Below are positions 4,669-39,795 of a stretch of DNA of 64,000 bases, piece by piece. Positions within the stretch are counted from its first letter, which is position 1, and the number at the start of each line of letters is the position of its first letter. Source of the stretch: Oscillospiraceae bacterium (GTDB lineage: Bacteria > Bacillota > Clostridia > Oscillospirales > Oscillospiraceae). The DNA lies in assembly GCA_031261745.1 (NCBI GenBank), contig JAISJC010000083.1, positions 22,772 to 86,771 of the forward strand, read 5' to 3'. The notes beneath the pieces were generated by a model. It ran no database searches, was not told where the DNA came from, and saw nothing but the letters and a program-made list of their open reading frames with translations. The position numbers and the translations under genes are program-made.

Positions 4669-5679
4669 CTAAATCCCGTCGCGGTAAGCGATGGGCTGCG
4701 TATAGAACACCTCAACCTCGGAGATGTTCGCCGCGTAGATGGTATCATACGCGAACGCGTCCGTGTTCGGAGACGTCATCGAGCGCATAAGCGGCACGAG
4801 TTCATCAAGGCCGAGGAACTTGCGGTCGTTCCGATACACGACAAGGCGGTCGGTGTTCGCCGCGCCGGTTCCTTTGCAGTACGCAGTCGCGCCGATGAAC
4901 AGGTCTGAACCGTTTTTCCGTGCGATGTTGTTCTCCTCAAGGAAAGTCAGAATCGTTTTCTCGGCAAGCGGGGAAACTTTCTGAGTTGCGATATAGCTAT
5001 ACTGCTCATAAGGCATAAGCGCGTGGTTTGGAATCGCGGAGCGGTCATATGCAGATGCCGCCCACGCAGCCACAATCGCGCTGTTGATGTCCGCGAGTAT
5101 CTCGTCAGCGGTCTTGCCCTCGAATTGAGTGCTACCGCTGTCGCCCGTCGCGGCATTTTGCGCGGTTACAAACGGATTGTTGAGCAAGCCGGACGTGCCG
5201 TAGCGGGCGAACCCGACGTACACGTTGGCGTCCATATGCTTATCGTAAGCGATACGAATGCCGTCCGTGAGCAAGTCCTCAAGCGAACGCCCCGCGAAGT
5301 TCTCGCGCTGTGCATCAATCCAACCCACGCGGAGCGCGATGTTGAATATATGCGCCTTGTAGATGTCGTCTTCAAGGTTCGCTTGTACGACGGGGATCCC
5401 GTTCGCGCCGCCCGCAGAGATAACGCCGTCGTTGGAGCCGCCCGTAACGCCAAAGTCGATGTTCATAGCGTTGATGTTTTTCGCCCAACCGCCGCCGACC
5501 TTGATGTCGATGTCACGCTGATAGGTTGTGCTGTTGAGCGGCTCACGAATAAGCGTGTCGCGTTTTGCGAGTTCGCTCGTCAGAAAAGCCTGTCCCGAGC
5601 GGATTGCCGAATCACGCATACTGATAGGGCGGCCTTTCTGCCCGGCAACTCCCGCGTCGTATGTACCAACATTTTTCAT
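4669..5679 (-). CDS. Major capsid protein (DUF2184-like)
   Basis: ATG 5679 preceded by SD AAGGAGGA; 336 aa. Follows a DUF2213-type scaffold gene, as DUF2184 capsid genes do. Confidence 0.8.
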   Translation of the reverse strand: MKNVGTYDAGVAGQKGRPISMRDSAIRSGQAFLTSELAKRDTLIREPLNSTTYQRDIDIKVGGGWAKNINAMNIDFGVTGGSNDGVISAGGANGIPVVQANLEDDIYKAHIFNIALRVGWIDAQRENFAGRSLEDLLTDGIRIAYDKHMDANVYVGFARYGTSGLLNNPFVTAQNAATGDSGSTQFEGKTADEILADINSAIVAAWAASAYDRSAIPNHALMPYEQYSYIATQKVSPLAEKTILTFLEENNIARKNGSDLFIGATAYCKGTGAANTDRLVVYRNDRKFLGLDELVPLMRSMTSPNTDAFAYDTIYAANISEVEVFYTQPIAYRDGI

Positions 5680-5692
5680 TTCAATATCCTCC

Positions 5693-6199
5693 TTATGCGT
5701 TCGCGCGGGTGAGCAGCACAAGCTCCGCGACACCATTGGCATCGGGTTTGCCGCCCCACTGCGCGTTGGGAATCAAGACGTTGTTTGCGCCGTCCGCTGT
5801 CGCTTCAAAATCACCGATCTTTTTCGGTGTGTTATCGGTGATGCGGACATAGACCTTGCCGTTCGGTACGGCATCGAGAAGCGGATTAAGCACGTTAATG
5901 CTTCCGCGCTGAAAAACCGACACGGCTTCGTTCGGCGCGTACTCGCCGCCGCCGTTTTGGTCGAGATAGTCGGTCGCAGAGGTCACTTCAAACGACGCAA
6001 TTCCCTCGAACAGGGCGGCTGTCAGCGTCGCGTCGGCACTTTTCACGCCGCCTGTGGCTCCGTCAGCGAGGAGCGCGGTGCCGAACTTGATTTTTGTTGT
6101 CCCCGTATTGGGGCGGCTCTGAATAATCATATCCGGCTGCCGCGCGTAGCTTCCGGCGAAACCGTTATTCATTACGAGACCGATGACTTTTCCGGGCAT
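5693..6199 (-). CDS. Structural protein between scaffold and capsid genes (possible decoration protein)
   Basis: ATG 6199 preceded by SD GGAGGAGAA; 168 aa, begins MPGKVIGLVMNNGFAG. The upstream part of the tracked ORF overlaps the scaffold gene and is Arg-rich. Confidence 0.5.
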   Translation of the reverse strand: MPGKVIGLVMNNGFAGSYARQPDMIIQSRPNTGTTKIKFGTALLADGATGGVKSADATLTAALFEGIASFEVTSATDYLDQNGGGEYAPNEAVSVFQRGSINVLNPLLDAVPNGKVYVRITDNTPKKIGDFEATADGANNVLIPNAQWGGKPDANGVAELVLLTRANA

Positions 6200-6200
6200 A

Positions 6201-7472
6201 TTATTTCTCCTCCTTTTTCTTGTGCGGATTATGCTTGTCATAAGCCGCCTGTTGCGCTTCAATGATTGCCGATTCGGACATCTCACCGGAATCGCGCACG
6301 TTCTTTTTCGCCGTGCTGTGCGTGGTTTCAAGGACACCCGCATACGACGAATTGAGCGACTTTCTGATTGACGCAGAGAGTGCGTCCGTCACGCGCTTGC
6401 GCTCTTTCGGGTCTGCGATTGCCGCGATCGCCGGACGCGCATTTTTGATTATGCGAATCGCCGCGTCTGCGGTAATCTCCGAGACCTCGTCATCATCGAG
6501 TGCGCTTGCCGACACGGTGACGGCTTCCTCTTGCTCGGTCGGGCTTTCGCCGTCGTCGCCCGTTTCGAGTTCACCGAGCAACTTGTCGATAGCGTCCTCT
6601 TTCTGCTCGGCCGCCGCTTCCTCAACGGCAGCGGGCAGTTCGTCGGGCGTTTTTGCCGCCGACAGCGCGTCAATCTTTGCTGTCAACGCGGTGATTGCTC
6701 CGAGGAGAGCATCAAGTGCGCCGCCCTTGGCGGGGTCGCAGTCCTTGACTTCCTCTTTTGCGGCGGGCGCGGGTGCTGTTTCCTCTGCGGTGAGTTTCTC
6801 GACCGTTTCGGCAGCGTCTTGAACAAGCTCGTCGATTTCGTCCGGCTTTGCATCGCGGACGCTTTTCGCAAAAATGTTCAAGAACCCGCTTGTCTTCGTG
6901 GGTTTACTCATTTTTCGTGTTCTCCTTTCGATTTTTGTTGGTAGTTCGTCTTTTATTGAAACACTTTTACCCGCGCGTCCGTTATCAACGAGCGCGACGT
7001 GGTTACCGCGTATCTCAATCTGTGAAAATGTGCCGTCCTCGTTCAGTGTGTACTGCGCCGTGTACCCCGAGGACACCTCGCGTTTTCCCTCCTCAATGTC
7101 GGAGATGGCGCGGGGATCCGTAAAGAACAGATCCGCAACAATTTTGTCGCTGTCCTTATCCGCGCCGCGCCGCACATTCTGAACGTGTCCGACCGCATAT
7201 GTGGCATAGTTCAGCGGCTCAACATCTTTCGGTGGGTGTTCGTTTGTTGTGGGTTTCCCCTCAAACGAAGCAAGAACGGCGAGGTCAAAAATATTGTCGC
7301 CACGAATGACCGTGACGACTTCGTTCGGGGAATCCTCTAACCCGATTTCGCCCCGCAGATATTCCATAGTGCCTGTGCGCCCAATCGGTACGTTCTTGCA
7401 AATGAGAAATCCCTCGGGAGTCTTAACCATATTCGGCGATATGCGGTCGCCATAATAAGCAAGTTGTGCCAT
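6201..7472 (-). CDS. XkdF-like DUF2213 prohead scaffold/protease protein
   Basis: 423 aa. N-terminus MAQLAYYGDRISPNMVKTPEGFLICKNVPIGRTGTMEY is typical of DUF2213/XkdF. The C-terminal half is Ala/Glu-rich low-complexity sequence. Confidence 0.7.
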   Translation of the reverse strand: MAQLAYYGDRISPNMVKTPEGFLICKNVPIGRTGTMEYLRGEIGLEDSPNEVVTVIRGDNIFDLAVLASFEGKPTTNEHPPKDVEPLNYATYAVGHVQNVRRGADKDSDKIVADLFFTDPRAISDIEEGKREVSSGYTAQYTLNEDGTFSQIEIRGNHVALVDNGRAGKSVSIKDELPTKIERRTRKMSKPTKTSGFLNIFAKSVRDAKPDEIDELVQDAAETVEKLTAEETAPAPAAKEEVKDCDPAKGGALDALLGAITALTAKIDALSAAKTPDELPAAVEEAAAEQKEDAIDKLLGELETGDDGESPTEQEEAVTVSASALDDDEVSEITADAAIRIIKNARPAIAAIADPKERKRVTDALSASIRKSLNSSYAGVLETTHSTAKKNVRDSGEMSESAIIEAQQAAYDKHNPHKKKEEK

Positions 7473-8155
7473 CAGCTCACCTCAACCCAACTTAGCACTC
7501 CGTCAACAGCTTCGAGCCTAACCGTCCCGTTCAGCGGTGGAGTCGGAATAACAAGCCCCTCCTTGTCGGTCATTGCCACAAAATGCTCTGAAAGGTCGGC
7601 TCTCCAAACTGTCGGCGTTTTGTTGGAGCGTATCCGCGTCTGATTCTGCGTGTCTCCGAATTTCTCCGTGTACGGTGCGCCCTCCTCTCCGTCCGGCAGC
7701 GTTATTTGACCGCCTATTGCAAGAAAGTCGGGGTATTGCTCCCCTGCGAGTGCGAGACCGAGTTCAAAATCGCCCGTGTCGGGGTTGGCCTCCGGTATCT
7801 CGATGGAGTAGTCGCCCGCTGCCGCGTCGTAAAAGGTTAAGACGTTTCCTTGCAGCGGCACTGTCTTACCCGCGCCGTTGACGATTGTTGCGTCGCCACC
7901 CCCACCGCTCGATCCTGTTTTCCTCGTCCATACGGAGCCGTCCGACTTCAAATACTTCGTGGGTTCAACAGGGGCTTTCCCCCACAAAGCGGCTCGTCCC
8001 ACATCGGGCGGTAGCACCTGCGTACCGTTATCGTCGCTCTCGTTGGGAATGCTGTCCCAAATCGAGCCGTCCGGCGCAAGGTATTTAAGGGGCGCGAGGT
8101 TTATAGCGGCGTACAGTTTCGCCCGACCCCCGTCGGGAGGTAATATCTGTCCCAT
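7472..8155 (-). CDS. Hypothetical head-module protein with N-terminal tandem repeat
   Basis: 227 aa, with two copies of LPPD(G/V)GRA..L......P.KYL..DGS.W. ATGA-type overlap with the downstream gene. Confidence 0.5.
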   Translation of the reverse strand: MGQILPPDGGRAKLYAAINLAPLKYLAPDGSIWDSIPNESDDNGTQVLPPDVGRAALWGKAPVEPTKYLKSDGSVWTRKTGSSGGGGDATIVNGAGKTVPLQGNVLTFYDAAAGDYSIEIPEANPDTGDFELGLALAGEQYPDFLAIGGQITLPDGEEGAPYTEKFGDTQNQTRIRSNKTPTVWRADLSEHFVAMTDKEGLVIPTPPLNGTVRLEAVDGVLSWVEVS

Positions 8156-8175: not shown

Positions 8176-8427
8176 TTAATTTGTCGGCGAAAATGCTTCT
8201 TCCGGCGCAGCGGCAAGAACGCCAGTGAGTGCCTCAATGAGTAAATCCGTGTAAATCTTGATATGGTCGTTCTCGTCCATAAAGATTTCAATGAGTTTCG
8301 GCATTTTCTCTCGCGGAGCCGTCGCCATCGTCATCATAACGATTTGCATTGCAGACGCTTCCTCGTCAATCGCAATGTACAACGCCTTTATGTATTCTTG
8401 GAGTTCCTCGGGTTTCATCCTGTTCAC
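8176..8427 (-). CDS. Hypothetical small protein
   Basis: 83 aa ORF abutting the MuF gene stop. Confidence 0.45.
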   Translation of the reverse strand: MNRMKPEELQEYIKALYIAIDEEASAMQIVMMTMATAPREKMPKLIEIFMDENDHIKIYTDLLIEALTGVLAAAPEEAFSPTN

Positions 8428-9647
8428 TATCCTTTCGCGGCAGCCGTAATGGCTTTATTTTGTTGACGGTATAGTCGCTGCAACTCGGTATACTTATCGC
8501 TCCCCGCGAGTTTGTGCTTTTGGAACGTCTGAAAGGTCTTCGGAGCCTTATCGCCAAGAACTGTTTGATACCGTTTGAACTGCTCAAAGTCGTTCAGCAT
8601 CTTTGTCCGTGCGGCTTCCTTTTCGCGGTAGGCTTTGCGCTGTGCTTCCGAGCGCGGGTCAACGTCCGGCGGGTTATCCTCGAAACTGCTGAATTTCCGG
8701 GTTTCCTCGATTTCCTTTTCGGAGCGGTAATCCTCTGTGTACGGTATCAAGGTGTGCTTGCAGTTCGGGTGAATGTTCAAGTATGAGTTATCGAGCGAGT
8801 TCGGGCCGGCAGCGTCTACTTTCCCAAATGCTGACGAGAGCGGCGGGTAGTTCGGGTTCTCGCCGCTCCGGCTGTACACACGCCCCTCGAAAGGAGCGCA
8901 TATAGGACACGTTGAAGCGTGAGAGCTTATCTTGTAGAGGTCGTGTTCGGGAAATGCGAATAACGCGCCGAGGTTCGTGGACTGTCGGCTCGTCGTGCGT
9001 GTCGCCATATTCGCATAGTTGCTCAAACTCCAATTCCGACCGCTTTTATCTGTGAACGCCGTCACGCCCTGTTTCTCCATATCCTCGAGGAATATAGCCT
9101 TTGCTTTCGACAGTCCCAAACCGGACGCTTCGCTCGTCGCTACTGCCTCTCCAATGGACGTTCGGAACAGGTCGTCGCTGCGTCTGCCGAGCGTCACCGA
9201 CTGCGCCCACGTTTTATGAATATTGCTATTCGTGGTGTTTACGGCTTCGGTAAGCGTTCCCAACAGGTTAGCCGACAGCTTGTCAATCAAGGCGCGTTCG
9301 GAGATTGCCATCGCGGACGCGGCAGAGTAGCCCGATGTGTGTTTTGCTATTTGCTCGGCGGTCGATAACCCCTCTATGTTGCGGTAATCTCCGAGTTTGC
9401 CGAGGTAATACTGACGCTCAACAGCCGCAGGGACATAGTCGCCCGCTTCGTTCAGCGCGTCACGAAGTATACGCTGAACGCGTTCGAGTGCGGCTTCTTG
9501 CGAATAATCCACAAGCCCGCGTGAGCGTTTGTATTGCAGCTCCCGAATAATGTCCTGTTCCGCTTTACGGAATATCTGCTCGATTTTCAGCGATTCGGGA
9601 GAGTACCCTGCTGTATTGACTTTTTTCGGTTTCACAGGCGTTGCCAT
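8427..9647 (-). CDS. Minor head protein, Mu F / SPP1 gp7 family
   Basis: ATG 9647 preceded by SD AGAGGAGAAG; 406 aa. Signature ...STCPICAPFEGRVY...HPNCKHTLIPY. Follows the portal gene. Confidence 0.85.
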   Translation of the reverse strand: MATPVKPKKVNTAGYSPESLKIEQIFRKAEQDIIRELQYKRSRGLVDYSQEAALERVQRILRDALNEAGDYVPAAVERQYYLGKLGDYRNIEGLSTAEQIAKHTSGYSAASAMAISERALIDKLSANLLGTLTEAVNTTNSNIHKTWAQSVTLGRRSDDLFRTSIGEAVATSEASGLGLSKAKAIFLEDMEKQGVTAFTDKSGRNWSLSNYANMATRTTSRQSTNLGALFAFPEHDLYKISSHASTCPICAPFEGRVYSRSGENPNYPPLSSAFGKVDAAGPNSLDNSYLNIHPNCKHTLIPYTEDYRSEKEIEETRKFSSFEDNPPDVDPRSEAQRKAYREKEAARTKMLNDFEQFKRYQTVLGDKAPKTFQTFQKHKLAGSDKYTELQRLYRQQNKAITAAAKG

Positions 9648-9658
9648 AGCTTCTCCTC

Positions 9659-9687
9659 TTGACAATTACGGTGATCTGTGTTATAGT
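9659..9687 (+). promoter_or_regulatory. Consensus sigma-A-type promoter on the antisense strand (TTGACA-17-TATAGT)
   Basis: TTGACA at 9659-9664, 17-nt spacer, TATAGT at 9682-9687. Sits inside the 144-nt portal-MuF intergenic region. Confidence 0.4.
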
Positions 9688-9791: not shown

Positions 9792-12113
9792 TTACCCAAT
9801 TTTCCACCCCGTCAGCAACCACGTCTTTTTTTCTCCGTGTTCGTCAAGCGATAGAACCGCCTCGTACCCGTCCTTTTCGACGTGAATGGTTTTCTTAGCT
9901 GCGACGTACTTCACGATGTTTCCATCAACAACTGCATCAATGACTTTCGGCACGGTTTCGGCACCGTGCCTTTCCTCAATATGTACCAGGCCTTTCTTTT
10001 TATCGCCTTGAATAAGCGTTATGTCGTTTGTTCCCCCATACCGCTCCAAGTCGTCGCGGAGATTGCTAATTGTTACTTCGCTTTCTCCGGCTGACAGACG
10101 CTCAATCGCGTTCTCAACTTGCTTGTGCTTTTCGGCACTGCTACTTTCGCCGTTTTCGCCGCTGCCCGACCCGCCGCCGCTTCCGAACTTTCCATCTCCA
10201 TCGCGCGGTTGGTCGGGGTCGAAGTCATCGGTAACGCGTGTCGTTTCGCCATCACGCGCAAGGTAGTCAGCAAGCAAGCCGAGCGACTCCTTGAACGGCG
10301 GGAATAGGTCAATCGTTTTTAGCGCAGACGGCTCCACAAGTGTAAAGTCGCTCATCTCGCCGTCCGTGGCTATTTCTCCACGGTTCTTTCCGCATTTTGT
10401 GCAAAGAAAGATATGCGGAGAGCCGTATTCCTCGGAAAGTGTGTTCAGCTGATTCAGCGGCACAAGGTTTTCGGCAAGCAAGCCGAATTCCTCTTGCAAT
10501 TCACGCCGAGCGGCTTGCTCCGGCGTTTCTCCCAAGTCTATGTGACCGCCCGCGCTTGCCCACCCCTGCCCGTCGCTACGCTTGGCAATAAGGAATTTGC
10601 CGTCTTTCATCACGATTATTCCGACAGTCCCGGGTGCAAGGCTCGTGTCCTGTGCCATACTCGGCAAGTCCGCGTCTATATCACCGCCAACGCCCGCGCC
10701 GCCCATCAGACCCATCATAGGGTCGTTCATTGATTGTAGGTCTTTTGCCCATACGCCCGCGCCCTCGGCGATCATTTCGTCCGTGATGCTTGCGTACATT
10801 CCGCTTTCGTCGCTGAGGGCTTTGAGTTCTTTCAGAAACGCCTCTTGCGTCATTCCGTTGGCGTTGAAAACCTCAATCAGCGTCATCGACTTTTTGTGCG
10901 CGATTTCGGCTTTCTCACTTTCGGTCGGATTGCGGACATTGTCGTAAACGTAATCAATATCGTCGGGCAGAACGCCCCACGCTGACAGCGCAAGGATCGG
11001 GAGCAGCTGCTCAACGACCGGTGACAACTCAATTTCGCGGCGTTCCTCGGCGTAGTCGTAATAGTTCTGCAAGTCCGACTCGCCTGTCGCGTTCATTCCG
11101 GCGGGACTTCTCCCGAATAACTTTGTCGCGGGGATATGCGATGCTCCCGTAATATCCATCATCAGCGCATTGTAAACATCGGCAAGCCCGGCGAACGTAT
11201 ACTGATACTGTTGAAGCGTGTCGCCCTTGTTGAGTATCCGCGTTCCGAGGTTTGATTCAAGAACGCTTATCGCTTGCATCTGATTCCAAAAACGCCGTTG
11301 AACCTCGCCGCCGCCAATCGCAAACATCTGGTCAATGTTGTCCATTGTGAGAACGGTTTGGTTCGCCTTGAACGTGAGCGACGCGATATTTGCAGATACA
11401 TTGTCGTGCTTTACGATTTCCTCGTAAATCGCTTCGATTTCGCTTTGCCCCCAATGCAGCTCCGCAACACGCTCTACCCACGGCAATTCGCGCCCGATAA
11501 AGCGGATGCAGCGAGAGTGATGCGCTTTGTACTGAACCGACCCGGCTTCATTCCGAATCTCGTAGAATTCGGGGTACCCGTAGTTCGGATCGTTTATATC
11601 GCTCACAAGCGACATACTCGGGTATGCACCATTCCAACGGTCAACGATATACAAGCCGCGAAAGCTGTCCGGCATTATCTCGTCGAGGTTCAGCGGCTTT
11701 TCGAGGTCGTCTTGTCCGTCAATCAAAATCAACCCGATTGCGCCACCATAAAGCCGCCCCCACTTCATACCCTCGAGGACGGACTTGCGGAGACGTGTTG
11801 TCCGCATTAGCTTGTTGAGTTTACTGAGCATATCCGGCGCGACATTGGACGTGACCTTGAACCACTTTTTTGTGATATCCTCGGGGATTGTGTTAATCAC
11901 ATTTTGAACAATCCAATTCCCGCGATAAAGGCTATTGAGCAGTTGATAATTCTGCGTCAGCCGCATAAGCGGGTACTCGGTCGCTTGCATAAGGTTTTGT
12001 GTGCCAACGCCGAGCCGCGCGGCGGGGTTGCTGAACGCATCTGATGTTCGCGCCAAGTGAGTGGACGTGGTAGGCGTTCCGCGCGACACCGCTTTTAATT
12101 TTACTGTTGCCAC
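9792..12113 (-). CDS. Portal protein (DUF1073-like) fused to a NUDIX hydrolase domain and a C-terminal nuclease-like module
   Basis: 773 aa, placed right after terL. The portal-like region covers aa 1-~480. A perfect NUDIX box GGHIDLGETPEQAARRELQEEFGL sits at aa 522-545. This is followed by a DQPRDGDGKF linker plus Gly/Ser spacer, then a terminal module with GLVHIEERHG. Confidence 0.85.
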   Translation of the reverse strand: MATVKLKAVSRGTPTTSTHLARTSDAFSNPAARLGVGTQNLMQATEYPLMRLTQNYQLLNSLYRGNWIVQNVINTIPEDITKKWFKVTSNVAPDMLSKLNKLMRTTRLRKSVLEGMKWGRLYGGAIGLILIDGQDDLEKPLNLDEIMPDSFRGLYIVDRWNGAYPSMSLVSDINDPNYGYPEFYEIRNEAGSVQYKAHHSRCIRFIGRELPWVERVAELHWGQSEIEAIYEEIVKHDNVSANIASLTFKANQTVLTMDNIDQMFAIGGGEVQRRFWNQMQAISVLESNLGTRILNKGDTLQQYQYTFAGLADVYNALMMDITGASHIPATKLFGRSPAGMNATGESDLQNYYDYAEERREIELSPVVEQLLPILALSAWGVLPDDIDYVYDNVRNPTESEKAEIAHKKSMTLIEVFNANGMTQEAFLKELKALSDESGMYASITDEMIAEGAGVWAKDLQSMNDPMMGLMGGAGVGGDIDADLPSMAQDTSLAPGTVGIIVMKDGKFLIAKRSDGQGWASAGGHIDLGETPEQAARRELQEEFGLLAENLVPLNQLNTLSEEYGSPHIFLCTKCGKNRGEIATDGEMSDFTLVEPSALKTIDLFPPFKESLGLLADYLARDGETTRVTDDFDPDQPRDGDGKFGSGGGSGSGENGESSSAEKHKQVENAIERLSAGESEVTISNLRDDLERYGGTNDITLIQGDKKKGLVHIEERHGAETVPKVIDAVVDGNIVKYVAAKKTIHVEKDGYEAVLSLDEHGEKKTWLLTGWKIG

Positions 12114-12120
12114 AGGGAAA

Positions 12121-13416
12121 TCACCCTACTTTCTGCCGTTCTTCTTTTCGCTCCTCGAAACCTATGCGCCACTTCGGCAACTTGGTAAAAACGAAATAAC
12201 GGAGCGCGTCGGCTCCGTGGTCGTTTTCTTTAATCGGTTTATCCTCGCCCTTTTGGGACGCTTTCTTATCCCACGCATAGGAGCGCAGTTCGCCGATAAG
12301 GCCCGCGCACCGTTCCCGATGCACGCGAATTTTCTTTTTCATAAACATATTGGACGTTGCGCGGATCCCGTCGTTCACCGCGTTGTCCGCTTGCGTAACG
12401 AACATTAACCTTGTCAGCAGTTCCGCAATGAAACTCGCTGCGGAGGGGTCAACGACGACCTCGCAGAGGTTATCCCCCATAAAGGTAACCATATCTGCGC
12501 CGTACTCCCCATCCGTCTTTTGAGCGCGGGGCGCACGTTTCGCTTCGTCACTTTGGCTGTCCCACCGATATTCGTTGTCAACCCATATTGTGTCGCCGTC
12601 ATCGTAAATATCGAGAAAAACGCACGGGTTTGTAGTGCCATAGTCAACCGCGATCGTGCGCTGCGATATGAGTTCAAGATTGTGCGGCCGCTCCGCGTCG
12701 TCGTAGATATTCGTTTCCGAAAAGGAATCGTAAATCACGCCCTCGGCGACGACACGTTCCCCGAGTATGTATCTGCGGTAGAAAACGCCGGTGTACTGCT
12801 TTTTCAGTTCCTCTTTGCGCTCCTCGGGAATTGCGAGATTGTCGTCAAGCGTAAAGAACCACTGCCGATACCCGGGCAGTTTCTCATTGAGGTATCTGTC
12901 CGTGTATTCCCTATAAATCCAGTGGTTAGGGTTATCGGGGTTGAGTGTCCATATGTTCTTGCGATCAACCGACGCAAAGGAGCGTTTGAACGCTTCCTCA
13001 ACGAACGACTGCGGCTGCAAATTGACCTCGTCGGCGTACCAACCGCCGACTGTTGCACCGCGCAAGGAGTTAAAGGAGCGTTCCGTATTCGCTCCGAAAC
13101 AATAGCATATCTTATCCTTGCCGCGCCCTGCGTGAACTATGAGCTGTCGAGTGTCGCGGCTCGTGATGTACTCAGCGCGACGACCGAGAACCGAAAGCAA
13201 TCCGTAATCGCCCGAAATGACATTGCGGTAAAGCGACGCGATTGTATTGCCCGACATAATAAAGAACTTCTCGGGGCTGTTGGTGATATAGTTTATCCAC
13301 GCCAACTCCGAGGCTACGGTTTTGCCGGAGCGAACCGCGCCCTCGTAAACGGTCAAGTACCCGCAGTTCGCTATGCTGTTGATTGCCTTTTGTGTCAACG
13401 GTTTAACTATCCCCAT
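12121..13416 (-). CDS. terL: Terminase large subunit (PBSX XtmB-like)
   Basis: 431 aa with P-loop-like GAVRSGKT. Overlaps the terS stop by 14 nt and is followed by the portal gene. Confidence 0.9.
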   Translation of the reverse strand: MGIVKPLTQKAINSIANCGYLTVYEGAVRSGKTVASELAWINYITNSPEKFFIMSGNTIASLYRNVISGDYGLLSVLGRRAEYITSRDTRQLIVHAGRGKDKICYCFGANTERSFNSLRGATVGGWYADEVNLQPQSFVEEAFKRSFASVDRKNIWTLNPDNPNHWIYREYTDRYLNEKLPGYRQWFFTLDDNLAIPEERKEELKKQYTGVFYRRYILGERVVAEGVIYDSFSETNIYDDAERPHNLELISQRTIAVDYGTTNPCVFLDIYDDGDTIWVDNEYRWDSQSDEAKRAPRAQKTDGEYGADMVTFMGDNLCEVVVDPSAASFIAELLTRLMFVTQADNAVNDGIRATSNMFMKKKIRVHRERCAGLIGELRSYAWDKKASQKGEDKPIKENDHGADALRYFVFTKLPKWRIGFEERKEERQKVG

Positions 13417-14359
13417 CGGTTTCGTCCTTTTTCACACCCGAAACATCGGCGATAACCTGCGCGAACTCCGAAAGCAAGCCGTCGCTGTCCTCAATGTCCC
13501 CGCCATACTTTTTCGTTTCGTGTTCGTGTTTCTCCTGTTGCATTTTGAGTTGAGCAGCGTCATAGTCGATTTTGTGCCTATCAAGCGGATTGACGAGGAA
13601 GTACCGTTCTAAGAAGTCGAGCGACTTATTGCGGTCAGCGAGTTTGATTTTTACGCCGCTGTCGCTTTCGGTTATCTCGCTTATGAGCTGCCCGTCTACA
13701 TCTGCGCTGCTCTTAATGGTGACTTCGTTGACGATTCGAGTAACAGGCACCATCGCGCCAGTGTCGGGCCGCTCCATCATAACGACGTGTCCGTTGTACA
13801 CTTTCGGCGTTTTATGTGAGCCGAAGTCCACGAAGTCCGTGATGTCGGAGAACGCAACCCTCATATGGTACTCGACGAGTTCAGCCGCGTCAAAGGTTAT
13901 GCGGTTTCTGACTTCGTCGCTCATTCGCTGAAGTAAGGCTTTAATTTCGGGTTTTTTCAAGAGTTCGCTTGCCATTGAGTACGCGCTTTTCGGTGAGTAT
14001 CCCGCTCGAATTGCCGCTTGCGTTCCGTTCTTATTGCGGAAATAATAATAACAGAATTGTCGCTGCTTTTCGTTGAGTCCGTCATCGTCGAGTGCTTCGT
14101 TAGCAGCCACCGCAATGTATTCCTCAACGGACGGTGTTTCTTTTTTTGGAACGCTCCGCACAGGTATCGGAGCGTTCCGTTTGTTTTTTGGAACGCTCCG
14201 CTCGTTTTTTTTTGCCCAATTATCTTTGTTTTTCCACGCTCTGATGGTTGATTCGGGGAGTTGAAGCGTTCCCGCTATATCGCAGAGTTTTGCCGTTCCT
14301 TTTGATTGTTCCCACATTATTCGGGCTTTTTCTCGCTTTGGATCTCTTGCCCTTGGCAT
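13403..14359 (-). CDS. terS: Terminase small subunit
   Basis: ATG 14359 preceded by SD GAGGGGTGG. Terminase_2-type segment NEKQRQFCYYYF...AAIRAGYSPKSA, plus an N-terminal HTH-like region. Confidence 0.8.
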   Translation of the reverse strand: MPRARDPKREKARIMWEQSKGTAKLCDIAGTLQLPESTIRAWKNKDNWAKKNERSVPKNKRNAPIPVRSVPKKETPSVEEYIAVAANEALDDDGLNEKQRQFCYYYFRNKNGTQAAIRAGYSPKSAYSMASELLKKPEIKALLQRMSDEVRNRITFDAAELVEYHMRVAFSDITDFVDFGSHKTPKVYNGHVVMMERPDTGAMVPVTRIVNEVTIKSSADVDGQLISEITESDSGVKIKLADRNKSLDFLERYFLVNPLDRHKIDYDAAQLKMQQEKHEHETKKYGGDIEDSDGLLSEFAQVIADVSGVKKDETDGDS

Positions 14360-14374
14360 TTCGCCACCCCTCAA

Positions 14375-15007
14375 TCAACTTGTACCGATTTGGAGCAGTT
14401 CGCTCCTTGGCAACCGCGCCGTGCCATCGAATGGCGGCTCCCACGTTGCAAATCTGTCATCTTGCGGTACGCGCTTCGCCGTTCCCGCTGATATAGCGTC
14501 CACAGCGTTGCACAGCATTTCTACGCCTATCGGGAATATCTCTGCCCAAAGACGGTGATAATCCCAATCCCGAGCGACAAAGACGGGCGTTTGCGCGAGG
14601 ATGTCCCCGCCGTCCACCTTATCGTCAAGCCAATAGACCGTCGCGCCGGTTATTGCGTCGCACATATCGACCGCCCACCGAACAGCGTCACGCCCTCGGT
14701 GCCGAGGGAGGAGCGACGGGTGAAAACCTATCGCTCCATATTTTGCCGATGATATGGTCTGCGCCGATATGTACCAATGCGAGTGCGCTGAAATAACGAG
14801 TTCGGTGTTTCGTGGTATCTGCGCCGACGTGATGTTCTCGCAGTCGCTTATTACGGGAATTTTCCGCTTCAACGCCGCGCCTGTGATTTTGTCGTAATAT
14901 TTCTCTTGCGGCGGCGGGGCGACTCCGACGATATTGTGACCGCGCTCGAAAAGGTTCACGAGGACAGCGCGACCGAAACTGCGCTGTCCGCATATGAAAA
15001 TGTTCAT
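14375..15007 (-). CDS. Formyltransferase N-domain protein (Fmt/PurN-like, no Fmt C-terminal domain)
   Basis: 210 aa with FHPSLLPRHRGRDAVRWAV and DGGDIL motifs. The usual Asn of the N-x-H motif is Gly (IGFH). ATGA overlap with the upstream gene. Confidence 0.7.
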   Translation of the reverse strand: MNIFICGQRSFGRAVLVNLFERGHNIVGVAPPPQEKYYDKITGAALKRKIPVISDCENITSAQIPRNTELVISAHSHWYISAQTISSAKYGAIGFHPSLLPRHRGRDAVRWAVDMCDAITGATVYWLDDKVDGGDILAQTPVFVARDWDYHRLWAEIFPIGVEMLCNAVDAISAGTAKRVPQDDRFATWEPPFDGTARLPRSELLQIGTS

Positions 15008-16140
15008 ATGCGCTCACCTATGTACTTGAATCCTTGTACCGCTCGGAAGTGTCCTCCATAGCCGAGGTTCATTTTTATATTGCCACGGCTTTTCGTCATA
15101 CTCCGTGCGCTGCGCGTCTTGTTATCTCCATAGAGTATTGCGCTTGTCTGTACCCACCGTTTACTGCGCCGCAGGGCGGCGCACAGCTGAGGGTGCGACG
15201 TGTGAAAGAATGTCGGTATTTTTTTGTTCTTTCTGCCGTTCCCCTCAAGGTGGTATTGGCATACCCATTCGAGAAATCTGACTCCGACTCCCGCGCCCTG
15301 CCACTCCGGCATCGTAACAAGCCGTGTCGCCCTGTACCCGTTCGCGGTGAATAGCGGAGCCACCGCGAGATGACACGCCAACTCTCCGTCCACCGTGCCA
15401 ACAAAATATTCGGCTGCGGGTGGCATCGGGAGGTCTAAATAATAATGCGGCTTAAAGTAGTGCCAATAACTGCCGTCCGTCTTGAAAACCTCAAGCTCAA
15501 TTTTCGGCCTTTGCCGAAGCCGCCCGCGCTCGAATTCTCTTGACTTTGTATCAAATACCCAGTCGGGCTGAACCCAGTCGAGAATATCGTAGTGCGGGGT
15601 AAGCAACACCACCTTTCCGTTTGGATTGGTGCGCCGCCAAGCCTTTTGAAATGCCTGTGAGCCTATGCGGGCAATTTGCCGATCAACGACGCTTGTGAAC
15701 TCGTCAACCACTACCCGTTCGGGCCTGGTGCATATGAGCCGCGCAAGACCTGCGCGGAACTGTTCACCGTTTGACAATACACGAAACGGACGGAGCCACG
15801 CCGGAACATCTCCGAGTCCCACGTTCGCAAGTGCGCCCGTGACCTCGTTAAAATCGCCGTCCGGCGCGATCTCGTCAATTATTGGGCTGTCAGCCGCCCA
15901 ACCCTGCGTGTAATCGTGAATTAAGTTTTCGCCGAATATGACTTTCCCGATTGAGGACTTGCCGGATCCGGACGGCCCGACAACAACTCCAATCTGCCAA
16001 TCTCCCGTGAGGTCAAGTTCCGCTTCGAGGTCAAAATTGCAGCCGCTTTCGGCATTGAAAAGGCTTTTTACCCGCGCGGCGCGGTAACTGTCGAAGTCTG
16101 ATGTGCGGTTATGCACCGCAATCTTTGTCAACTCGCTCAC
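15004..16140 (-). CDS. Soluble ABC-type ATPase fused to a GNAT-like acyltransferase domain
   Basis: GTG 16140 preceded by SD AAGGTGGTGG. ATPase motifs: Walker A GPSGSGKSS, signature-like LSNGEQ, Walker B VVVDEF. GNAT motif A-like RLVTMPEWQGAGVGVRFLEW. Confidence 0.7.
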   Translation of the reverse strand: MSELTKIAVHNRTSDFDSYRAARVKSLFNAESGCNFDLEAELDLTGDWQIGVVVGPSGSGKSSIGKVIFGENLIHDYTQGWAADSPIIDEIAPDGDFNEVTGALANVGLGDVPAWLRPFRVLSNGEQFRAGLARLICTRPERVVVDEFTSVVDRQIARIGSQAFQKAWRRTNPNGKVVLLTPHYDILDWVQPDWVFDTKSREFERGRLRQRPKIELEVFKTDGSYWHYFKPHYYLDLPMPPAAEYFVGTVDGELACHLAVAPLFTANGYRATRLVTMPEWQGAGVGVRFLEWVCQYHLEGNGRKNKKIPTFFHTSHPQLCAALRRSKRWVQTSAILYGDNKTRSARSMTKSRGNIKMNLGYGGHFRAVQGFKYIGERI

Positions 16141-16712
16141 GTCGCCACCACCTTGCAGTTAAGACCCTGCTCGGTAAGGCTCTCGTAAACGCCGCGTTGC
16201 TCGTCCTCATCGGCGCATATGACAATGACCCCGAATTGCTCTTGGTAGTTGAACCCGGATTCTCTGTTCGTTTCTCCGTCGTCATCATCCATATTGTCTG
16301 CATCGGGCAGCATAAACAGCTCGTCGAGTTCCGCTTGCGTGAACCCCGTGAGGCTTGCCAACATCTCATCGGCATCTGCCGCGAGTTCCTCGAGAAGTAC
16401 GCTTAACTTGTCATCGTCCCATTCGCCGGATATTTTGTTGAGGGCAATATTGAGCGACTTCTCCTGTAATTCGTCAATGTCTATGACGCTTACGTCGAAT
16501 TCGTCGATGCCCATATCGCAGAGAACGGTGTACCTTTGATGACCGCCGACGATGTTTCCGGTGCGGCGGTTCCAAACGATCGGCTCCACCATACCGAAAT
16601 GTTCAATCGACCTCTTTATCTGCTCGTATTCCGCATCGCCGGCCGCAAGTGTTTTCCGTGGATTGTATGCGGCGGGGCTGATTTCGGAGGCTTTAACGCG
16701 TATAATTTCCAT
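16137..16712 (-). CDS. ParB/Srx-like N-terminal domain protein with acidic C-terminal tail
   Basis: ATG 16712 preceded by SD GAAGGAGAA; 191 aa with EPIVWNRRTGNIVGGHQRY. First gene of the late operon. Confidence 0.8.
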   Translation of the reverse strand: MEIIRVKASEISPAAYNPRKTLAAGDAEYEQIKRSIEHFGMVEPIVWNRRTGNIVGGHQRYTVLCDMGIDEFDVSVIDIDELQEKSLNIALNKISGEWDDDKLSVLLEELAADADEMLASLTGFTQAELDELFMLPDADNMDDDDGETNRESGFNYQEQFGVIVICADEDEQRGVYESLTEQGLNCKVVAT

Positions 16713-16821
16713 TGCTTTTCTCCTTCGTCGTTGCTCCACCCGAGGTACTATCGGCGAATAGTACGACGTTGGGCAGCGACGCGCCAAGGAGCGAACGCGC
16801 CGCAAGAAAAGCCCCCTTTCA

Positions 16822-19423: not shown

Positions 19424-19783
19424 CTAATACCACTCGCCCACACGGACAATCCAAACCTCGAACCACCCCGGTAAATTCTTTCCGCTATTATCAAGGCGTT
19501 TTTTGCTGCCGAAATCCTCTACAACGTAGCCGCCACGCGGTGTGCCGTCGCCATCTAACCAGTCCGTGCGGACTTGGTACTTGCACCACCCGCTAATAAC
19601 ATCCGCTTCGGAGAGGTGCGCTCCAAGCTCCGGGTTGAGGCATTCGGGCGAGAGGTAATCTTTATCCACAATGAATTTCGGCACCTCCGCTTTATTCGGG
19701 CATAGGTCTTTTCGTATGATGTAAGCGTTTCCGTCGCCATCGTAATCCCAAGCGTTCCACTCAAATTTAGGCTTTCTGCTCAT
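19424..19783 (-). CDS. Hypothetical protein
   Basis: ATG 19783 preceded by SD GGGAGG, with ATGA overlap onto the upstream stop; 119 aa. Confidence 0.45.
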   Translation of the reverse strand: MSRKPKFEWNAWDYDGDGNAYIIRKDLCPNKAEVPKFIVDKDYLSPECLNPELGAHLSEADVISGWCKYQVRTDWLDGDGTPRGGYVVEDFGSKKRLDNSGKNLPGWFEVWIVRVGEWY

Positions 19784-20637
19784 TTTTCTACCTCCCACGG
19801 AAATTCTTGTATCAGCGGTTCGCCCCATATCACCCCGAGCGAGGATTTCATAAAGATTGGTACCAGTTCCCACCTCGCCGCATCGACAATATCCTCGACC
19901 CACCCACGCTGCGGAATTATCTTGTCTTTCCGATTGCCCGTTTCCGCTCCGATTATCAGCCAGTCGAAATAGGTTCTCTCGTAGTTGTCTGTTATCGACT
20001 CGTGCAGAGGTTCAATACTCGCAAAGGCATTTACACTCGGCGTGAGGGAGCCTATTGCGTCGCTCGCACGCTGCGCCGACACCTTATCCGTTATACTCGC
20101 GCCATACCAAAAGTTCTCGTAGCGAGGCAGTAACGCCATCTCGTCAAGGTCTTGGTACCGTCCCGGATTCTTTGTTAAAAACAGGTACCGATGCTGCGGA
20201 GCCGCCGCGCAAGCGTCAAATACGTCTTTTATCCACGAAGTCGGAACCCAACTCCCGAACAGGTCGCACATACTGCCGACAAATATCGTGCGCGGTTCTT
20301 TCCACTTTTGCGGTTCGTCGAGGCGATAGCGGTGGAGCGTCGGCTCAAAGCCGAACGGGTATGGGTCAATTTTGCCGTTTTGCGGGTTGCCGAGCGGCAC
20401 ATCTAACTCCTTTTTCAAGAAAACCTTGTCGGCTTGCTCTTTGGTGAACCTCGTTTCTCGGAGAATGCGACCGCGCGGATCGCTTGCTGTATTCTCGAAA
20501 TACGTCGCTTTCTGCGACAGACACGAACCGCCGAACCGCCGTGCCATACTCCGCGCGTAGCAATACTCGCAGTCGTGGCGGCAACCGGTGACGGGATTCC
20601 AAGAGGCATCAAAAGTTTCAATTTTCGTTTTATTCAT
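19780..20637 (-). CDS. Gp37/Gp68 family protein (DUF5131) with radical-SAM-type CxxxCxxC motif
   Basis: Begins [32 protein letters not shown] overlap with the HNH gene stop. Confidence 0.7.
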
Positions 20638-21146
20638 TGCGCTTTTCCTCCCCACGTCCACGTTTTTCCTTTTGTGTTGTGACCACGAACATTTTTTCGT
20701 AATCTTCCCTTGCTGTCACGGCATTCAATACGTTGACCGCATCCGCAAGCGCAAAGAACTAACTCACGAGATAGCTTGCGAACTTTTTGATATTGAACTA
20801 ACCCCGTAGCCATTGCCGATTTCTGCTCCGATGTCATTTTCGACATATGCAAGCGTTTGTGTTCAGAGTTTCCGAGCATTTCAAGGTTTTCAATCCGATT
20901 ATCCGTTTTATCTCCGTTGATGTGGTGGACGTGTTCATCTTTTGTGAGAGGTCTCCCTAAATGGTTAGCCATTACCAAACGATGTTCAAAGACATAACCG
21001 CCCTTGCCGCTTTTATTAAATTTTGCCGCAGGGTATGTCGGCGCGTGTACCAATACATATCCCTGCTTTATATGAACCTTTTTTCGCGTAGGTGTGGTTT
21101 CCCACGGCGCGCTCGAATCGCGCCAGTCAATCTTTGTCTTGTTCAT
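20634..21146 (-). CDS. HNH endonuclease
   Basis: 170 aa with [26 protein letters not shown]. Confidence 0.8.
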
Positions 21147-27520: not shown

Positions 27521-28261
27521 TTAGAAATCCCCCCCCCCCGCATTATCGCGTAGGGTAGCAATCAGCTTGTCGGCAGCTTCACCGGTGAGGTAATACTTCT
27601 CGTCAACGTGTTCCTCAAGTACATCTTTGAGCCGTCGTTCAAGCGGTATCGGTTCGGGAAAGTCGTAATAATAGCTGCCAAGCCACGACGCCATAAATAT
27701 CCTTTCGCGGTTCTGCGGCACTCCGTAATCGCAAGCATTAAGGACTTGATATTCGTTCGTGTACCCTTTGGATTCAAGGAATCGGCACCACTCGGAAAAC
27801 TCGTCAATATTTTTCGGCGACAACACGTCCGCCACGTTCTCCATAAGTAGGATTTGCGGTAACTCCGCGCACTCGGATAGCAGACGTTCGACTTCCCACA
27901 GCAGACTTGACGCGGTGCCGCTGTCGCGGCTCATACCCTCCATTTTGCCGGCCTTTGAAATCGAGGTGCAGGGATACGAATATGTCAGTATGTAGCAGCA
28001 ATCCTCGGTGCGCTCAATGCCCAAGTCCTCGCCGCGCCACTTCGTTACATCGGACGGCTCCCACGCGGTGCCGTGAACCGCGTTATAGGAATTAACCGCA
28101 AATCTATCAATCTCGCAGAGGCGATAATGTTCAAACGGAACACCGAGGTTGCGGGGAGCCATTGCCTGTGAGCCGATACCGCCGAACAGCTCAATCAGTC
28201 GGATGGGCTTGCCAATCCGCAGCGGCGACTCACCGTCAAAGAAACTTATCTGATGCGCCAC
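27521..28261 (-). CDS. C5-MTase N-terminal part (motifs I-VIII), terminated just after the G11 tract
   Basis: GTG 28261 lies one nt after the rusA stop, with SD GAGGGGAG. Motifs LFGGIGS, YPCTSIS, ENV, QNRERIF. Ends ...NAGGGDF*. Confidence 0.7.
   Translation of the reverse strand: MAHQISFFDGESPLRIGKPIRLIELFGGIGSQAMAPRNLGVPFEHYRLCEIDRFAVNSYNAVHGTAWEPSDVTKWRGEDLGIERTEDCCYILTYSYPCTSISKAGKMEGMSRDSGTASSLLWEVERLLSECAELPQILLMENVADVLSPKNIDEFSEWCRFLESKGYTNEYQVLNACDYGVPQNRERIFMASWLGSYYYDFPEPIPLERRLKDVLEEHVDEKYYLTGEAADKLIATLRDNAGGGDF
27529..27539 (-). repeat. Homopolymeric G11 tract (C11 on the plus strand) inside the C5-MTase
   Basis: Counted directly: C at 27529-27539. The frame switches here. Confidence 0.95.
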
Positions 28262-28262
28262 A

Positions 28263-28685
28263 TCAGCCCACTCCCCTCGTCGCCTCGGTTTCCTCAATGA
28301 CAATGTGCAGTTTCGGAACCTCGGCATAATATTTTCGGACATACATTTCACAGACTTGCGCGTCGTCCGCATACGCGAGTTTGTTCAGAGCGTCGGCAAC
28401 GATTTTCAACACATTGTCGAGATCCGGCTTGACGATCGGCATTGCCTCGTCGCGTATCATCGCTTCTCGCCGCACCTTGCTGACGCTTTTCGGTATCGGG
28501 TACCCCGCGAATATTTGAAGCGTCAGCGGAATTCCCTTGTCAAACTGTTTTCCGTGCGCCGCGCGGAACGCCCATTTGATTTTTTCCTCATAGGCGACGG
28601 TTTCGGGCGGTGTATACGCGTGGCCCGCAAATCGCGGGCGTTGTTTCCCGAACGGCTGCCCCGGCACGTCAAACTCAATTCGCAT
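28263..28685 (-). CDS. rusA: RusA-family Holliday junction resolvase
   Basis: ATG 28685; 140 aa. MRIEFDVPGQPFGKQRPRF...VKPDLDNVLKIVADALN is the typical RusA pattern. Confidence 0.8.
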   Translation of the reverse strand: MRIEFDVPGQPFGKQRPRFAGHAYTPPETVAYEEKIKWAFRAAHGKQFDKGIPLTLQIFAGYPIPKSVSKVRREAMIRDEAMPIVKPDLDNVLKIVADALNKLAYADDAQVCEMYVRKYYAEVPKLHIVIEETEATRGVG

Positions 28686-30337: not shown

Positions 30338-30744
30338 AAGTCCTCCGTTTCGTCCGTTTGGGACGACTCCATTTTTGCAATTAGATTTTGCATACGCTCA
30401 AAGTCGCGCCGAGCGCGTTCGGGAGCCTCCCTGCGGTCTTTTGCTTGGTCGATTTCGGCAAGAACAGCGGGCAAGCTCGGAAAGAATACCGCGTCCTTTG
30501 ACCGTTGCATTCTTATCGCGTCGATTGCGGTGCGTACATCAGCAGGGTTTTCCCGTTCAAACGCAATAGCCCAAGCGATTACCATCATTTGACCGTCGCG
30601 TTTCGACAAGCCGCGAAGCTGATTCGGGAAAGACGCTTTGAGGAGTGCAAGCATCTCCGTTGTGTGTCGGACAACCTCCGCAGACGCGCTTTTTACGATC
30701 CCCTCTTGACGCTCGGCGGCTATTGCCTCGCTATTCGTTCCCAT
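30334..30744 (-). CDS. G39P-like replicative helicase loader
   Basis: 136 aa. LLKASFPNQL...W...DVRTAIDAI....FFPSLPAVLAEI resembles the 'loader and inhibitor of G40P' pattern. Follows the DnaD-like gene. Confidence 0.5.
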   Translation of the reverse strand: MGTNSEAIAAERQEGIVKSASAEVVRHTTEMLALLKASFPNQLRGLSKRDGQMMVIAWAIAFERENPADVRTAIDAIRMQRSKDAVFFPSLPAVLAEIDQAKDRREAPERARRDFERMQNLIAKMESSQTDETEDL

Positions 30745-38054: not shown

Positions 38055-38675
38055 GTGTTAGTTATGCCGACCATTATTGATGTCATTGACCGTTTAATGT
38101 CTGAACGCAATATAGGTTCATATTCAGAGTTGGAACGGCTTTCCGGCATTTCAAATGGCTCTATCGGGAAATGGGCGAAGAGCAACTATGAGCCATCAAA
38201 GAAAAGTTTGAACCGTTTAGCCGCGTACTTTGATATTTCTGTTGAGGAACTGCTTGTAACGCCCGACTTAATCAGCGTGGGCGTTACCGGAGTCCGCACT
38301 TGGGCTGATAACGATTTTTTTACCGAAGAGGAATCGGCAAATATAAAAGAACATTTTACTGACTTACTGTTTCGGTACAAAAATGTTGTGAATCACGTTT
38401 GCGACGCGCGCACAGGTGTACACGGGGATATTGATGTTGATGCAATACGAAACCGCGTTCATAGTGATATAGACGCCTTATTGCACTGGGTGGACCTAAT
38501 CCCGGATTATTTCTTTGGAAAGCGCAAAAAACCGACTGCCCTTGATGGGCAGCCGGCAAGCGAACGTGCAGAGCGTTTAGTTGACAAAATCATTCGTCTT
38601 TCGCCAGAGGACGCTCAGAAAGCTCTTGACTATGTAGAGATGTTAGAGTTGAAACGAAATCATCAAGGGTCGTAA
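38055..38675 (+). CDS. Phage repressor, XRE-family HTH (CI-like)
   Basis: HTH segment SYSELERLSGISNGSIGKWAKSN. Divergent from the early operon. Alternative ATG start at 38064. Confidence 0.7.
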   Translation: MLVMPTIIDVIDRLMSERNIGSYSELERLSGISNGSIGKWAKSNYEPSKKSLNRLAAYFDISVEELLVTPDLISVGVTGVRTWADNDFFTEEESANIKEHFTDLLFRYKNVVNHVCDARTGVHGDIDVDAIRNRVHSDIDALLHWVDLIPDYFFGKRKKPTALDGQPASERAERLVDKIIRLSPEDAQKALDYVEMLELKRNHQGS

Positions 38676-39761: not shown

Positions 39762-39795
39762 CGTTAAACGCAGAAAGGGCAGACGAGGGCGGTAT

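Follow-up and report, generated by a model that had tools for sequence, protein, structure and literature searches.

Can the portal of a phage head double as a carrier for enzymes, and if so, what do those enzymes do and where? The question is raised by a single gene in a 64,000-nucleotide stretch of DNA from an Oscillospiraceae bacterium (GenBank assembly GCA_031261745.1, contig JAISJC010000083.1, positions 22,772 to 86,771 of the forward strand), which we refer to as the window and whose own numbering is used throughout. The gene lies on the minus strand at 9792-12113, where a single uninterrupted open reading frame (ORF) of 2,322 nt begins with GTG, ends with a stop codon at 9792-9794 and encodes 773 amino acids (aa). 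An earlier note, made from the letters of the window, had reported a portal ORF of this length extended by a NUDIX domain and a nuclease-like module; the coordinates it gave, 9792-10634, cover the C-terminal extension and fall short of the whole gene, which extends to 12113. An NCBI entry from an Oscillospiraceae metagenome-assembled genome (MAG), identical over all 773 residues (P0016), is annotated 'MAG: DUF1073 domain-containing protein'. Profile searches, structural models and relatives agree on the 'polyvalent portal' architecture that the note had proposed. They show that a portal of the Phage_portal_3 (E217/Pa193) family continues through flexible Gly-rich linkers into two predicted, independently folding enzyme modules, a NUDIX hydrolase and a PBECR-like nuclease.

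The portal domain comprises aa 1-465 (10719-12113). Phage_portal_3 (PF06381) matches its Pfam core, aa 59-409 (nt 10887-11939), with 350.3 bits against a cut-off of 33.8 (E = 1.2e-104), the NCBIfam model of HI1409-family portals, TIGR01555, scores 207.6 bits, above its cut-off of 196.25, and a C-terminal helical 'barrel' or 'crown' follows at approximately aa 410-465. The domain also matches the portal structures of Pam3, Pa193 and E217 (E from 2.6e-38 to 2e-21), and from homology to these solved portals it would be expected to form a dodecameric ring at the unique vertex of the capsid. The closest portals are 64-68% identical to it, and alignment to relatives puts the end of the portal-like part at about aa 465-476, close to the 480 residues estimated previously.

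Between the portal barrel and the first enzyme lies a Gly-rich low-complexity linker (aa 466-495; 10629-10718, minus strand), recognised from its sequence and from a predicted local distance difference test score (pLDDT) that is still below 50 where the NUDIX model starts. An internal translation start that would give a free NUDIX-nuclease protein was considered and rejected, as no Shine-Dalgarno sequence stands ahead of M486. The NUDIX hydrolase domain itself spans aa 496-621 (10251-10628, minus strand). PF00293 recognises aa 496-598 with 60.9 bits against a cut-off of 21.1 (E = 1.7e-16), the AlphaFold2 (AF2) model has a pLDDT of 82, and Foldseek matches that model to more than 500 NUDIX chains with a probability of 1.0. 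The box string reported at aa 522-545, GGHIDLGETPEQAARRELQEEFGL, is present there; the strict Nudix box, GHIDLGETPEQAARRELQEEFGL, occupies aa 523-545 (nt 10479-10547) and matches the regular expression GX5EX7REUXEEXGU exactly. The domain is a predicted pyrophosphohydrolase that looks catalytically intact.

Which substrate such a domain prefers was approached with a profile of the portal-fused NUDIX family. Against the PDB, E. coli MutT ranked first (62 bits, E = 4.8e-16, nearly full length), followed by MTH1, BdRppH and others, with ADP-ribose pyrophosphatase at about 42 bits. In hmmsearch the profile matched a MutT sequence over its full length with 57.6 bits, and in this alignment the Asn of the FPPANE segment of MutT, which we take to be the base-recognition residue, faces a position that is not Asn in the portal-fused family; T4 NudE scored 8.7 bits, and a Jiaodavirus nudix protein 35.5 bits over the box region only. 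By these scores enzymes of the MutT/MTH1/RppH type are much nearer to the domain than T4 NudE is. The domain is also closer to that type than to the ADP-ribose/NAD type, so the earlier emphasis on NAD and ADP-ribose (ADPR) loses some weight. The profile seems to favour a substrate of the nucleoside triphosphate (NTP) or RNA-5'-end type, although sequence does not suffice to predict which one. A specific assignment was dropped, since all NCBIfam equivalogs score far under their cut-offs on this domain, including the MutT 8-oxo-dGTPase equivalog TIGR00586 (38.6-41.7 bits against 97.9), Foldseek is undiscriminating, and the PDB search goes no further than ranking MutT and MTH1 first. Fusions of phage Nudix domains with MuF, with the portal or with the head protease were described in 2022, the Nudix domains being placed in a T4 NudE-like clade (Iyer et al., 2022; PMC9503650); for the present domain that label was rejected, with 8.7 bits on T4 NudE against approximately 58-62 on MutT. 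A word-index search with the NUDIX segment returned three matches only, all of them stand-alone chromosomal NUDIX genes.

The NUDIX domain is followed by an inter-module junction (10140-10214, minus strand) that consists, as had been noticed before, of the motif DQPRDGDGKF (aa 634-643, nt 10185-10214) and a Gly/Ser linker (aa 644-658), the sequence after the motif being GSGGGSGSGENGESS. Beyond it lies the C-terminal module (aa 659-773, 115 aa; 9795-10139, minus strand), in which GLVHIEERHG is found at aa 708-717. The likeness of this module to PBECR nucleases, put forward previously at motif level only, now extends to a profile alignment, a model with the BECR fold and the characteristic His and Ser/Thr, even though the Pfam cut-off is missed: PBECR1 (PF18809) reaches 15.7-16.2 bits on aa 697-771 against a gathering cut-off of 27.6, so that Pfam places the NUDIX part of the extension above its threshold and the PBECR1 part (15.7 versus 27.6 bits) below it. 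Relatives of the module are small proteins that have no Pfam annotation, and four of ten family members match PBECR1, all of them sub-threshold (best E = 3.7e-4); the terminal 122 residues alone had no match in PHROGs. The alignment of the relatives, A1, has a strongly conserved core, and hhalign paired it with the PBECR1 domains of two related portal proteins (P0017 and P0023) over 78 columns at 95% probability (E = 3.6e-8), the template being thin at two sequences.

In the AF2 model of the terminal module (pLDDT 87.8), helices occupy aa 708-716 and 720-730 and four strands follow, as expected of the BECR fold, in which one or more helices precede an antiparallel sheet of four to five strands. 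H711 is conserved in 92 of 98 family sequences and position 768 is Thr or Ser in 94 of them, T768 being aligned with the Ser/Thr of PBECR1; R686, D688, K741, K763 and T764 are likewise conserved across the 98. The PBECR clade is defined by a His within the N-terminal helix together with a Ser/Thr of the last strand, and endoribonuclease activity of the family as a whole is a prediction (Iyer et al., 2017; PMC5512222). Because the same configuration is found here, we count the module among PBECR1-like domains, as a divergent one that is missed by the Pfam threshold, and the score below the cut-off therefore marks a divergent sub-family. H711 and T768 are candidate catalytic residues, and the module is probably active, as a predicted metal-independent endoribonuclease (RNase).

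The top PDB match of the model in Foldseek was CdiA-CT of Serratia marcescens BWH57 (7m5f_C, E = 5e-5), with RelE toxins next. The segment SGLQHIVEEHG of 7M5F aligns with KGLVHIEERHG here, including the proposed active-site His, and the depositors of the structure describe a BECR-fold RNase with candidate active-site residues H47, E51, H52 and R89. The similarity is nevertheless distant (TM-score approximately 0.42-0.45, identity 23%), and whereas CdiA-CT is delivered by contact-dependent secretion and neutralised by CdiI, an immunity gene was not found beside the fusion. One stand-alone homologue of the module (P0003, 118 aa) is chromosomal and lies between mnmG (gidA) and rsmG (gidB) at L003:5383-6099; the P0003-type gene has the same arrangement in L004 and L005 as in L003 (JGI metagenome contig). 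A Cys-rich ORF of 66 aa stands directly after P0003, with which it may form a toxin-immunity or toxin-antitoxin pair, and no homologue of this ORF was found in the window.

A survey of portal lengths, which the earlier note had suggested, showed that portals 53-68% identical to that of the fusion are mostly 455-500 aa long, a minority carrying C-terminal extensions of differing cargo. Related fusions join the portal to NUDIX and PBECR1 (P0017, 822 aa, with PBECR1 at 42 bits and above the cut-off), to NUDIX and PBECR3 (P0020, 837 aa), to NUDIX (P0018 and P0019), to PBECR1 (P0023), to PBECR3 (P0024) or to LPD13 (P0026 and P0048), and in a protein of 615 aa (P0037) a portal 47% identical to ours bears the same terminal module (69% identical). 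The 828-aa portal of the cultured Faecalibacterium phage FP_Brigit (AUV56649.1) likewise consists of Phage_portal_3 followed by a NUDIX domain, which is 36-38% identical to ours; it aligns through this domain and the PRD junction, which there reads HPRDENGQF, and diverges after it, its terminal module being unrelated. A portal+NUDIX family already exists in PHROGs as phrog_15528.

To assess the wider distribution, aa 467-773 were searched with HMMER against a complete set of 1.84 billion representative proteins; there were 2,712 matches, the best 150 of which were examined. Fifty-five of these 150 are NUDIX-type, 22 of them with a detectable portal domain, and nine of ten long NUDIX-type matches sampled are portal+NUDIX proteins, some with an extra ADP-ribosyltransferase (ART) or Zeta-toxin domain. 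The terminal module is carried by 95 of the 150, ranging in length from 77 to 5,626 aa; among them are stand-alone genes, proteins in which it is fused N-terminally to DUF2213, and giant polyvalent proteins of 1,100-5,626 aa, in which the partners are ART-PolyVal, MuF_C and LPD23. None of the best 150 matches pairs a NUDIX domain of this family with this terminal module, and the exact triple is therefore rare, though each pairing is common.

Two junction motifs recur among the fetched relatives. The motif [QH]PRDxxG[KRQ]F with a Gly-rich stretch occurs in 19 of them, always directly before the next module, and an alternative, GSGNFGHxGRPG with a Gly-rich linker, occupies the same position in 14. 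Portal fusions and giant polyvalent proteins contain them, as does the N-terminal side of 'stand-alone' cassettes (carriers include P0021, P0024, P0026, P0129, P0191, P0202, P0208 and P0212), and they could be cleavage sites or recombination handles. The NUDIX domain is 42-50% identical both to those on close portals (64-68% portal identity) and to those on distant ones (27%), and copies of the terminal module on the 47%-identical portal and in solo genes share 66-69% identity with ours. On these comparisons module identity is decoupled from carrier identity, a pattern of cassette exchange of the kind known from polymorphic toxins and polyvalent proteins, and the NUDIX domain, the terminal module and the short junction motif that precedes it behave as mobile cassettes that are set on portals, other head-interior proteins, giant proteins and solo genes. 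The fusion fits the description of a polyvalent protein, with NUDIX and BECR modules placed after a portal that is encoded in a terminase-portal-MuF-capsid module, and it takes part in the shared and shuffled domain network of such proteins both through the partners of its terminal module and through the PBECR1, PBECR3 and LPD13 of sister portals.

Where these modules would reside can be judged from solved portals of the same family. The C-terminal portal barrel of E217 and Pa193 points into the head interior. In E217 it unfolds once ejection has taken place, residues 97-528 of 765 having been built, and in Pa193 residues 529-765 have no cryo-electron microscopy density. E217 gp19 (L013:9124-11421, MF490240.1; 765 aa) contains an InPase domain (PF18823) at aa 635-753 (E = 3e-43), which falls within the stretch that lacks density (529-765), and the same applies to Pa193 by homology; the text consulted in the E217 and Pa193 structure papers makes no mention of an enzyme domain. 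E217 and Pa193 (PDB 8FVH, 9B41) share with the present protein the portal family, a C-terminal phosphohydrolase-type cargo and a syntenic head module (MuF, DUF2213/Pa193_gp24, cement protein and major capsid protein), and differ from it in that their cargo is a single InPase, instead of NUDIX and a predicted RNase, and their hosts are Proteobacteria. Because the homologous barrel projects into the head, the extension is expected to lie inside the capsid in twelve copies or fewer. Capsid targeting of the terminal module is further supported by its fusion to DUF2213/Pa193_gp24, since Pa193_gp24 is seen at the inner capsid surface and is regarded by the authors of the Pa193 paper as a putative scaffolding protein retained in the virion.

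According to the model that we favour, the extension would be held within the capsid in up to twelve copies per virion and, while tethered to the portal, could not pass down the tail. It would probably be cut at the linker or the junction, either during head maturation or after exit of the DNA, when the barrel unfolds. The released cargo would accompany the DNA into the host, a route already suggested for polyvalent and MuF-fused effectors, and would act there ahead of any phage gene expression. The NUDIX domain would hydrolyse a substrate of the nucleoside tri- or diphosphate (NDP) type, either free nucleotides or RNA 5' ends bearing a triphosphate or an NDP cap, a substrate type preferred here because the profile is similar to MutT, MTH1 and RppH instead of ADP-ribose enzymes; the BECR RNase would cleave host or defence RNAs, and the two together would weaken host RNA and nucleotide-based responses. 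We lean, with some reserve, towards this account of a pre-loaded cargo, released on infection, that combines a pyrophosphohydrolase of nucleotides or RNA ends with an endoRNase.

Several observations weigh against it. Packaging, cleavage and ejection of the cargo are all inferred steps. A tethered domain would leave the capsid only if cleaved, and the candidate protease, DUF2213, is a protease according to PHROGs and a scaffold according to the Pa193 paper. The missing density of the E217 and Pa193 C-termini could mean removal instead of disorder. Foldseek does not separate NudI, Ap6A hydrolase, ADPRase, RppH and MTH1 for the NUDIX model, and the ART and Zeta-toxin partners found in relatives hint at chemistry on NAD or nucleotide sugars and not on RNA ends. 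Finally, no immunity gene was found next to the putatively toxic RNase.

The alternative that survives best, although we regard it as doubtful, is that the cargo is never delivered: it would stay tethered or be trimmed off, acting late in the producer cell on nucleotides or RNA or having a structural or packaging role, and fusion to the portal would mainly secure late co-expression. This would agree with the inability of a tethered domain to descend the tail, with a cleavage site and a protease that have yet to be proven, and with the equivalent region of E217 and Pa193 being simply unseen; moreover, most close portals have no extension, which implies that it is dispensable for assembly. On the other hand, capsid targeting best accounts for the presence of the same modules on several carriers of the head interior (the portal, DUF2213, proteins in MuF context and giant virion polyvalent proteins). 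Each cargo is preceded by flexible linkers and a conserved junction motif, and injected head proteins have precedents in T4 Alt, P1 Dar and the virion RNA polymerase (vRNAP) of N4 (PMC5512222).

Only a little less probable, and still a minority view, is the reading offered by the earlier note, in which the NUDIX domain is a dedicated counter-defence enzyme directed at poison nucleotides or at the nucleotide messengers of immunity (ADPR-derived signals of Thoeris, cyclic oligonucleotides, 3'-deoxy-3',4'-didehydro-nucleoside triphosphates (ddhNTPs), inosine triphosphate (ITP)) or at NAD caps. Related portal-NUDIX proteins often carry NAD-using ARTs or Zeta-type kinases, and portal-fused 2H and InPase domains have been predicted to degrade signalling nucleotides (PMC5512222). 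However, the family profile scores best on MutT and MTH1, with 62 bits on MutT against about 42 on ADP-ribose pyrophosphatase and 8.7 on T4 NudE. NUDIX enzymes cut pyrophosphate bonds, and cyclic oligonucleotides have no such bond. The literature searched gave no report of a demonstrated virion-borne NUDIX anti-defence enzyme and nothing relevant on links between Acb1 and portals, and a phi24B preprint and the MuF APK paper contained no data on portal fusions. A bolder version, in which the portal is a general capsid-targeting carrier, the junction is the site of cleavage and release at maturation, and twelve MutT-like NUDIX domains and the RNase are freed and injected, so that the NUDIX domain serves as a pre-loaded counter-defence enzyme removing, ahead of phage transcription, poison NTPs (such as ddhNTP and ITP), signals derived from NAD or ADPR, or RNA 5' caps, is in our view unlikely to hold in full.

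A shade less likely again is that the gene encodes a prophage polymorphic toxin comparable to those of the MuF type, with the portal as carrier of a swappable antibacterial BECR RNase, from which lysogens would gain by intoxicating competitors struck by their virions. In its favour, the top structural match is a contact-dependent inhibition toxin (CdiA-CT of BWH57), C-terminal cassettes are exchanged behind a conserved junction as in polymorphic toxins, and the chromosomal stand-alone homologue is followed by the small Cys-rich ORF described above. A framework is provided by the MuF toxins known from temperate phages (Jamet et al., 2017; PMC5576092), which likewise have a conserved head-module carrier, a variable C-terminal effector and a prophage context; they differ in that MuF is present in few copies, against twelve for the portal, and in that no small immunity ORF lies downstream here. 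The small immunity gene that typically stands directly downstream of a polymorphic toxin was found neither after the portal fusion nor in L011, a related contig with the same terminal module, and small ORFs beside related cassettes (66 aa in L003, 76 aa in L012, 83 aa in the window) were rejected as an immunity family because they are mutually unrelated. NUDIX, InPase and LPD13 would also be atypical as toxins, and with late genes silent in a lysogen, immunity would not strictly be needed either way.

That the fusion is an artefact (a frameshift, a chimera of MAG assembly or a decaying pseudogene) is effectively refuted: although the source is a MAG and each module, searched by itself, has its nearest relatives among stand-alone genes, independent metagenomic relatives repeat the domain order at 53-61% identity, which together with the uninterrupted ORF excludes the separate gene joined by a sequencing error that the earlier note had asked about, the Nudix box has no deviation, conservation extends to the BECR residues, the GC content at third codon positions is similar across the parts of the gene, and the head module is complete and syntenic with those of L011 and L012.

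The earlier interpretation of the architecture is correct, yet the architecture itself is not new. Portal-PBECR, MuF-PBECR and portal-InPase fusions were described among polyvalent proteins in 2017 (Iyer et al., 2017; PMC5512222), and portal-Nudix fusions, as noted above, in 2022. The 2017 fusions share with the present protein a head protein with a C-terminal BECR-fold predicted RNase, its His in a helix and its Ser/Thr in the final strand, a setting among late genes of the virion, and a module that is also found solo and in giant polyvalent proteins; here, the module scores below the PBECR1 threshold (15.7 against 27.6 bits) and stands behind an additional NUDIX domain. To this body of work the present analysis adds a PBECR1-like family that is widespread and escapes the Pfam PBECR1 threshold, a portal-fused NUDIX domain that is MutT-like and not NudE-like, the junction motifs, and a link to structurally characterised portals (E217 and Pa193) whose cargo domain went unremarked in the passages available to us. 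It provides a well-supported case of the portal as a carrier of swappable enzyme cargo in a prophage of an uncultured, gut-type Firmicute, and a two-enzyme cargo that should be easy to express and is tied to a family of portals for which virion structures have been solved (E217, Pa193 and Pam3). Other capsid-stored proteins that act in the host before phage expression, such as T4 Alt and the T4 internal proteins, P1 DarA/DdrB and N4 vRNAP (PMC5512222), are free or protease-processed and have experimental support, whereas the cargo here is a putative one and a covalent part of the portal. If delivery and anti-defence activity were borne out, enzymes tethered to a portal would take their place beside T4 Alt and P1 Dar among the pre-loaded effectors of infection.

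The portal gene is embedded in a head module between the large terminase and head morphogenesis genes, syntenic with L011, L012 and the E217/Pa193 type. All of the following genes of this module are on the minus strand. Directly upstream is the large terminase (12121-13416; Terminase_6N, E = 2.7e-11), preceded by the small terminase (13403-14374). Downstream, after a gap of approximately 145 nt that contains no ORF, lies a MuF-like minor head protein (8427-9665; Phage_min_cap2, E = 5.6e-26; PHROG 'minor head protein'), the true start of which is likely the ATG at 9645 and in which Pfam finds no toxin extension. Further on are a DUF2213/Pa193_gp24-like head-interior protein (6201-7472; recognised by Pfam, PHROG 'head maturation protease'), the major capsid protein (4669-5742) and the tail sheath (602-2035). 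Other prophage genes of the window encode a DUF5131 protein (19780-20661), a C5 cytosine DNA methylase (27521-28372), a DnaB_2 replication protein (30731-31633), RecT (33110-33988), an SMC/AAA_23-like ATPase (33988-35979), a CI-like repressor (38055-38675) and a serine recombinase (39709-41337). Host genes, among them a histidine kinase and EPSP synthase, begin at about 42.8 kb, and the GC content rises past 46 kb. Because the repressor and the recombinase mark the end of the prophage, with host genes beyond, we regard the element as a myovirus-type prophage.

Directly upstream of the small terminase, and also on the minus strand, stand a Formyl_trans_N gene (14375-15007), an ABC_tran-like ATPase gene (15004-16140) and a ParB_N-like gene (16137-16805). 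This triad (14375-16805) is conserved in the related contig at L011:1201-3441 and is possibly an accessory module for DNA modification or packaging. Two small ORFs on the minus strand separate the MuF-like gene from the DUF2213 gene: an acidic ORF of 83 aa just downstream of the former (8176-8427), which matches PHROG 29883 only, and an ORF of 227 aa (7472-8155), which has no Pfam or PHROG match. In the contig that encodes P0017, L012, the MuF-like minor capsid gene (719 aa, L012:8896-11055) carries an intein (PF14890, Intein_splicing). The 227-aa ORF of the window contains an internal repeat, ILPPDGGRAKLY...KYLAPDGSIW and VLPPDVGRAALW...KYLKSDGSVW, followed by a Gly-rich stretch.

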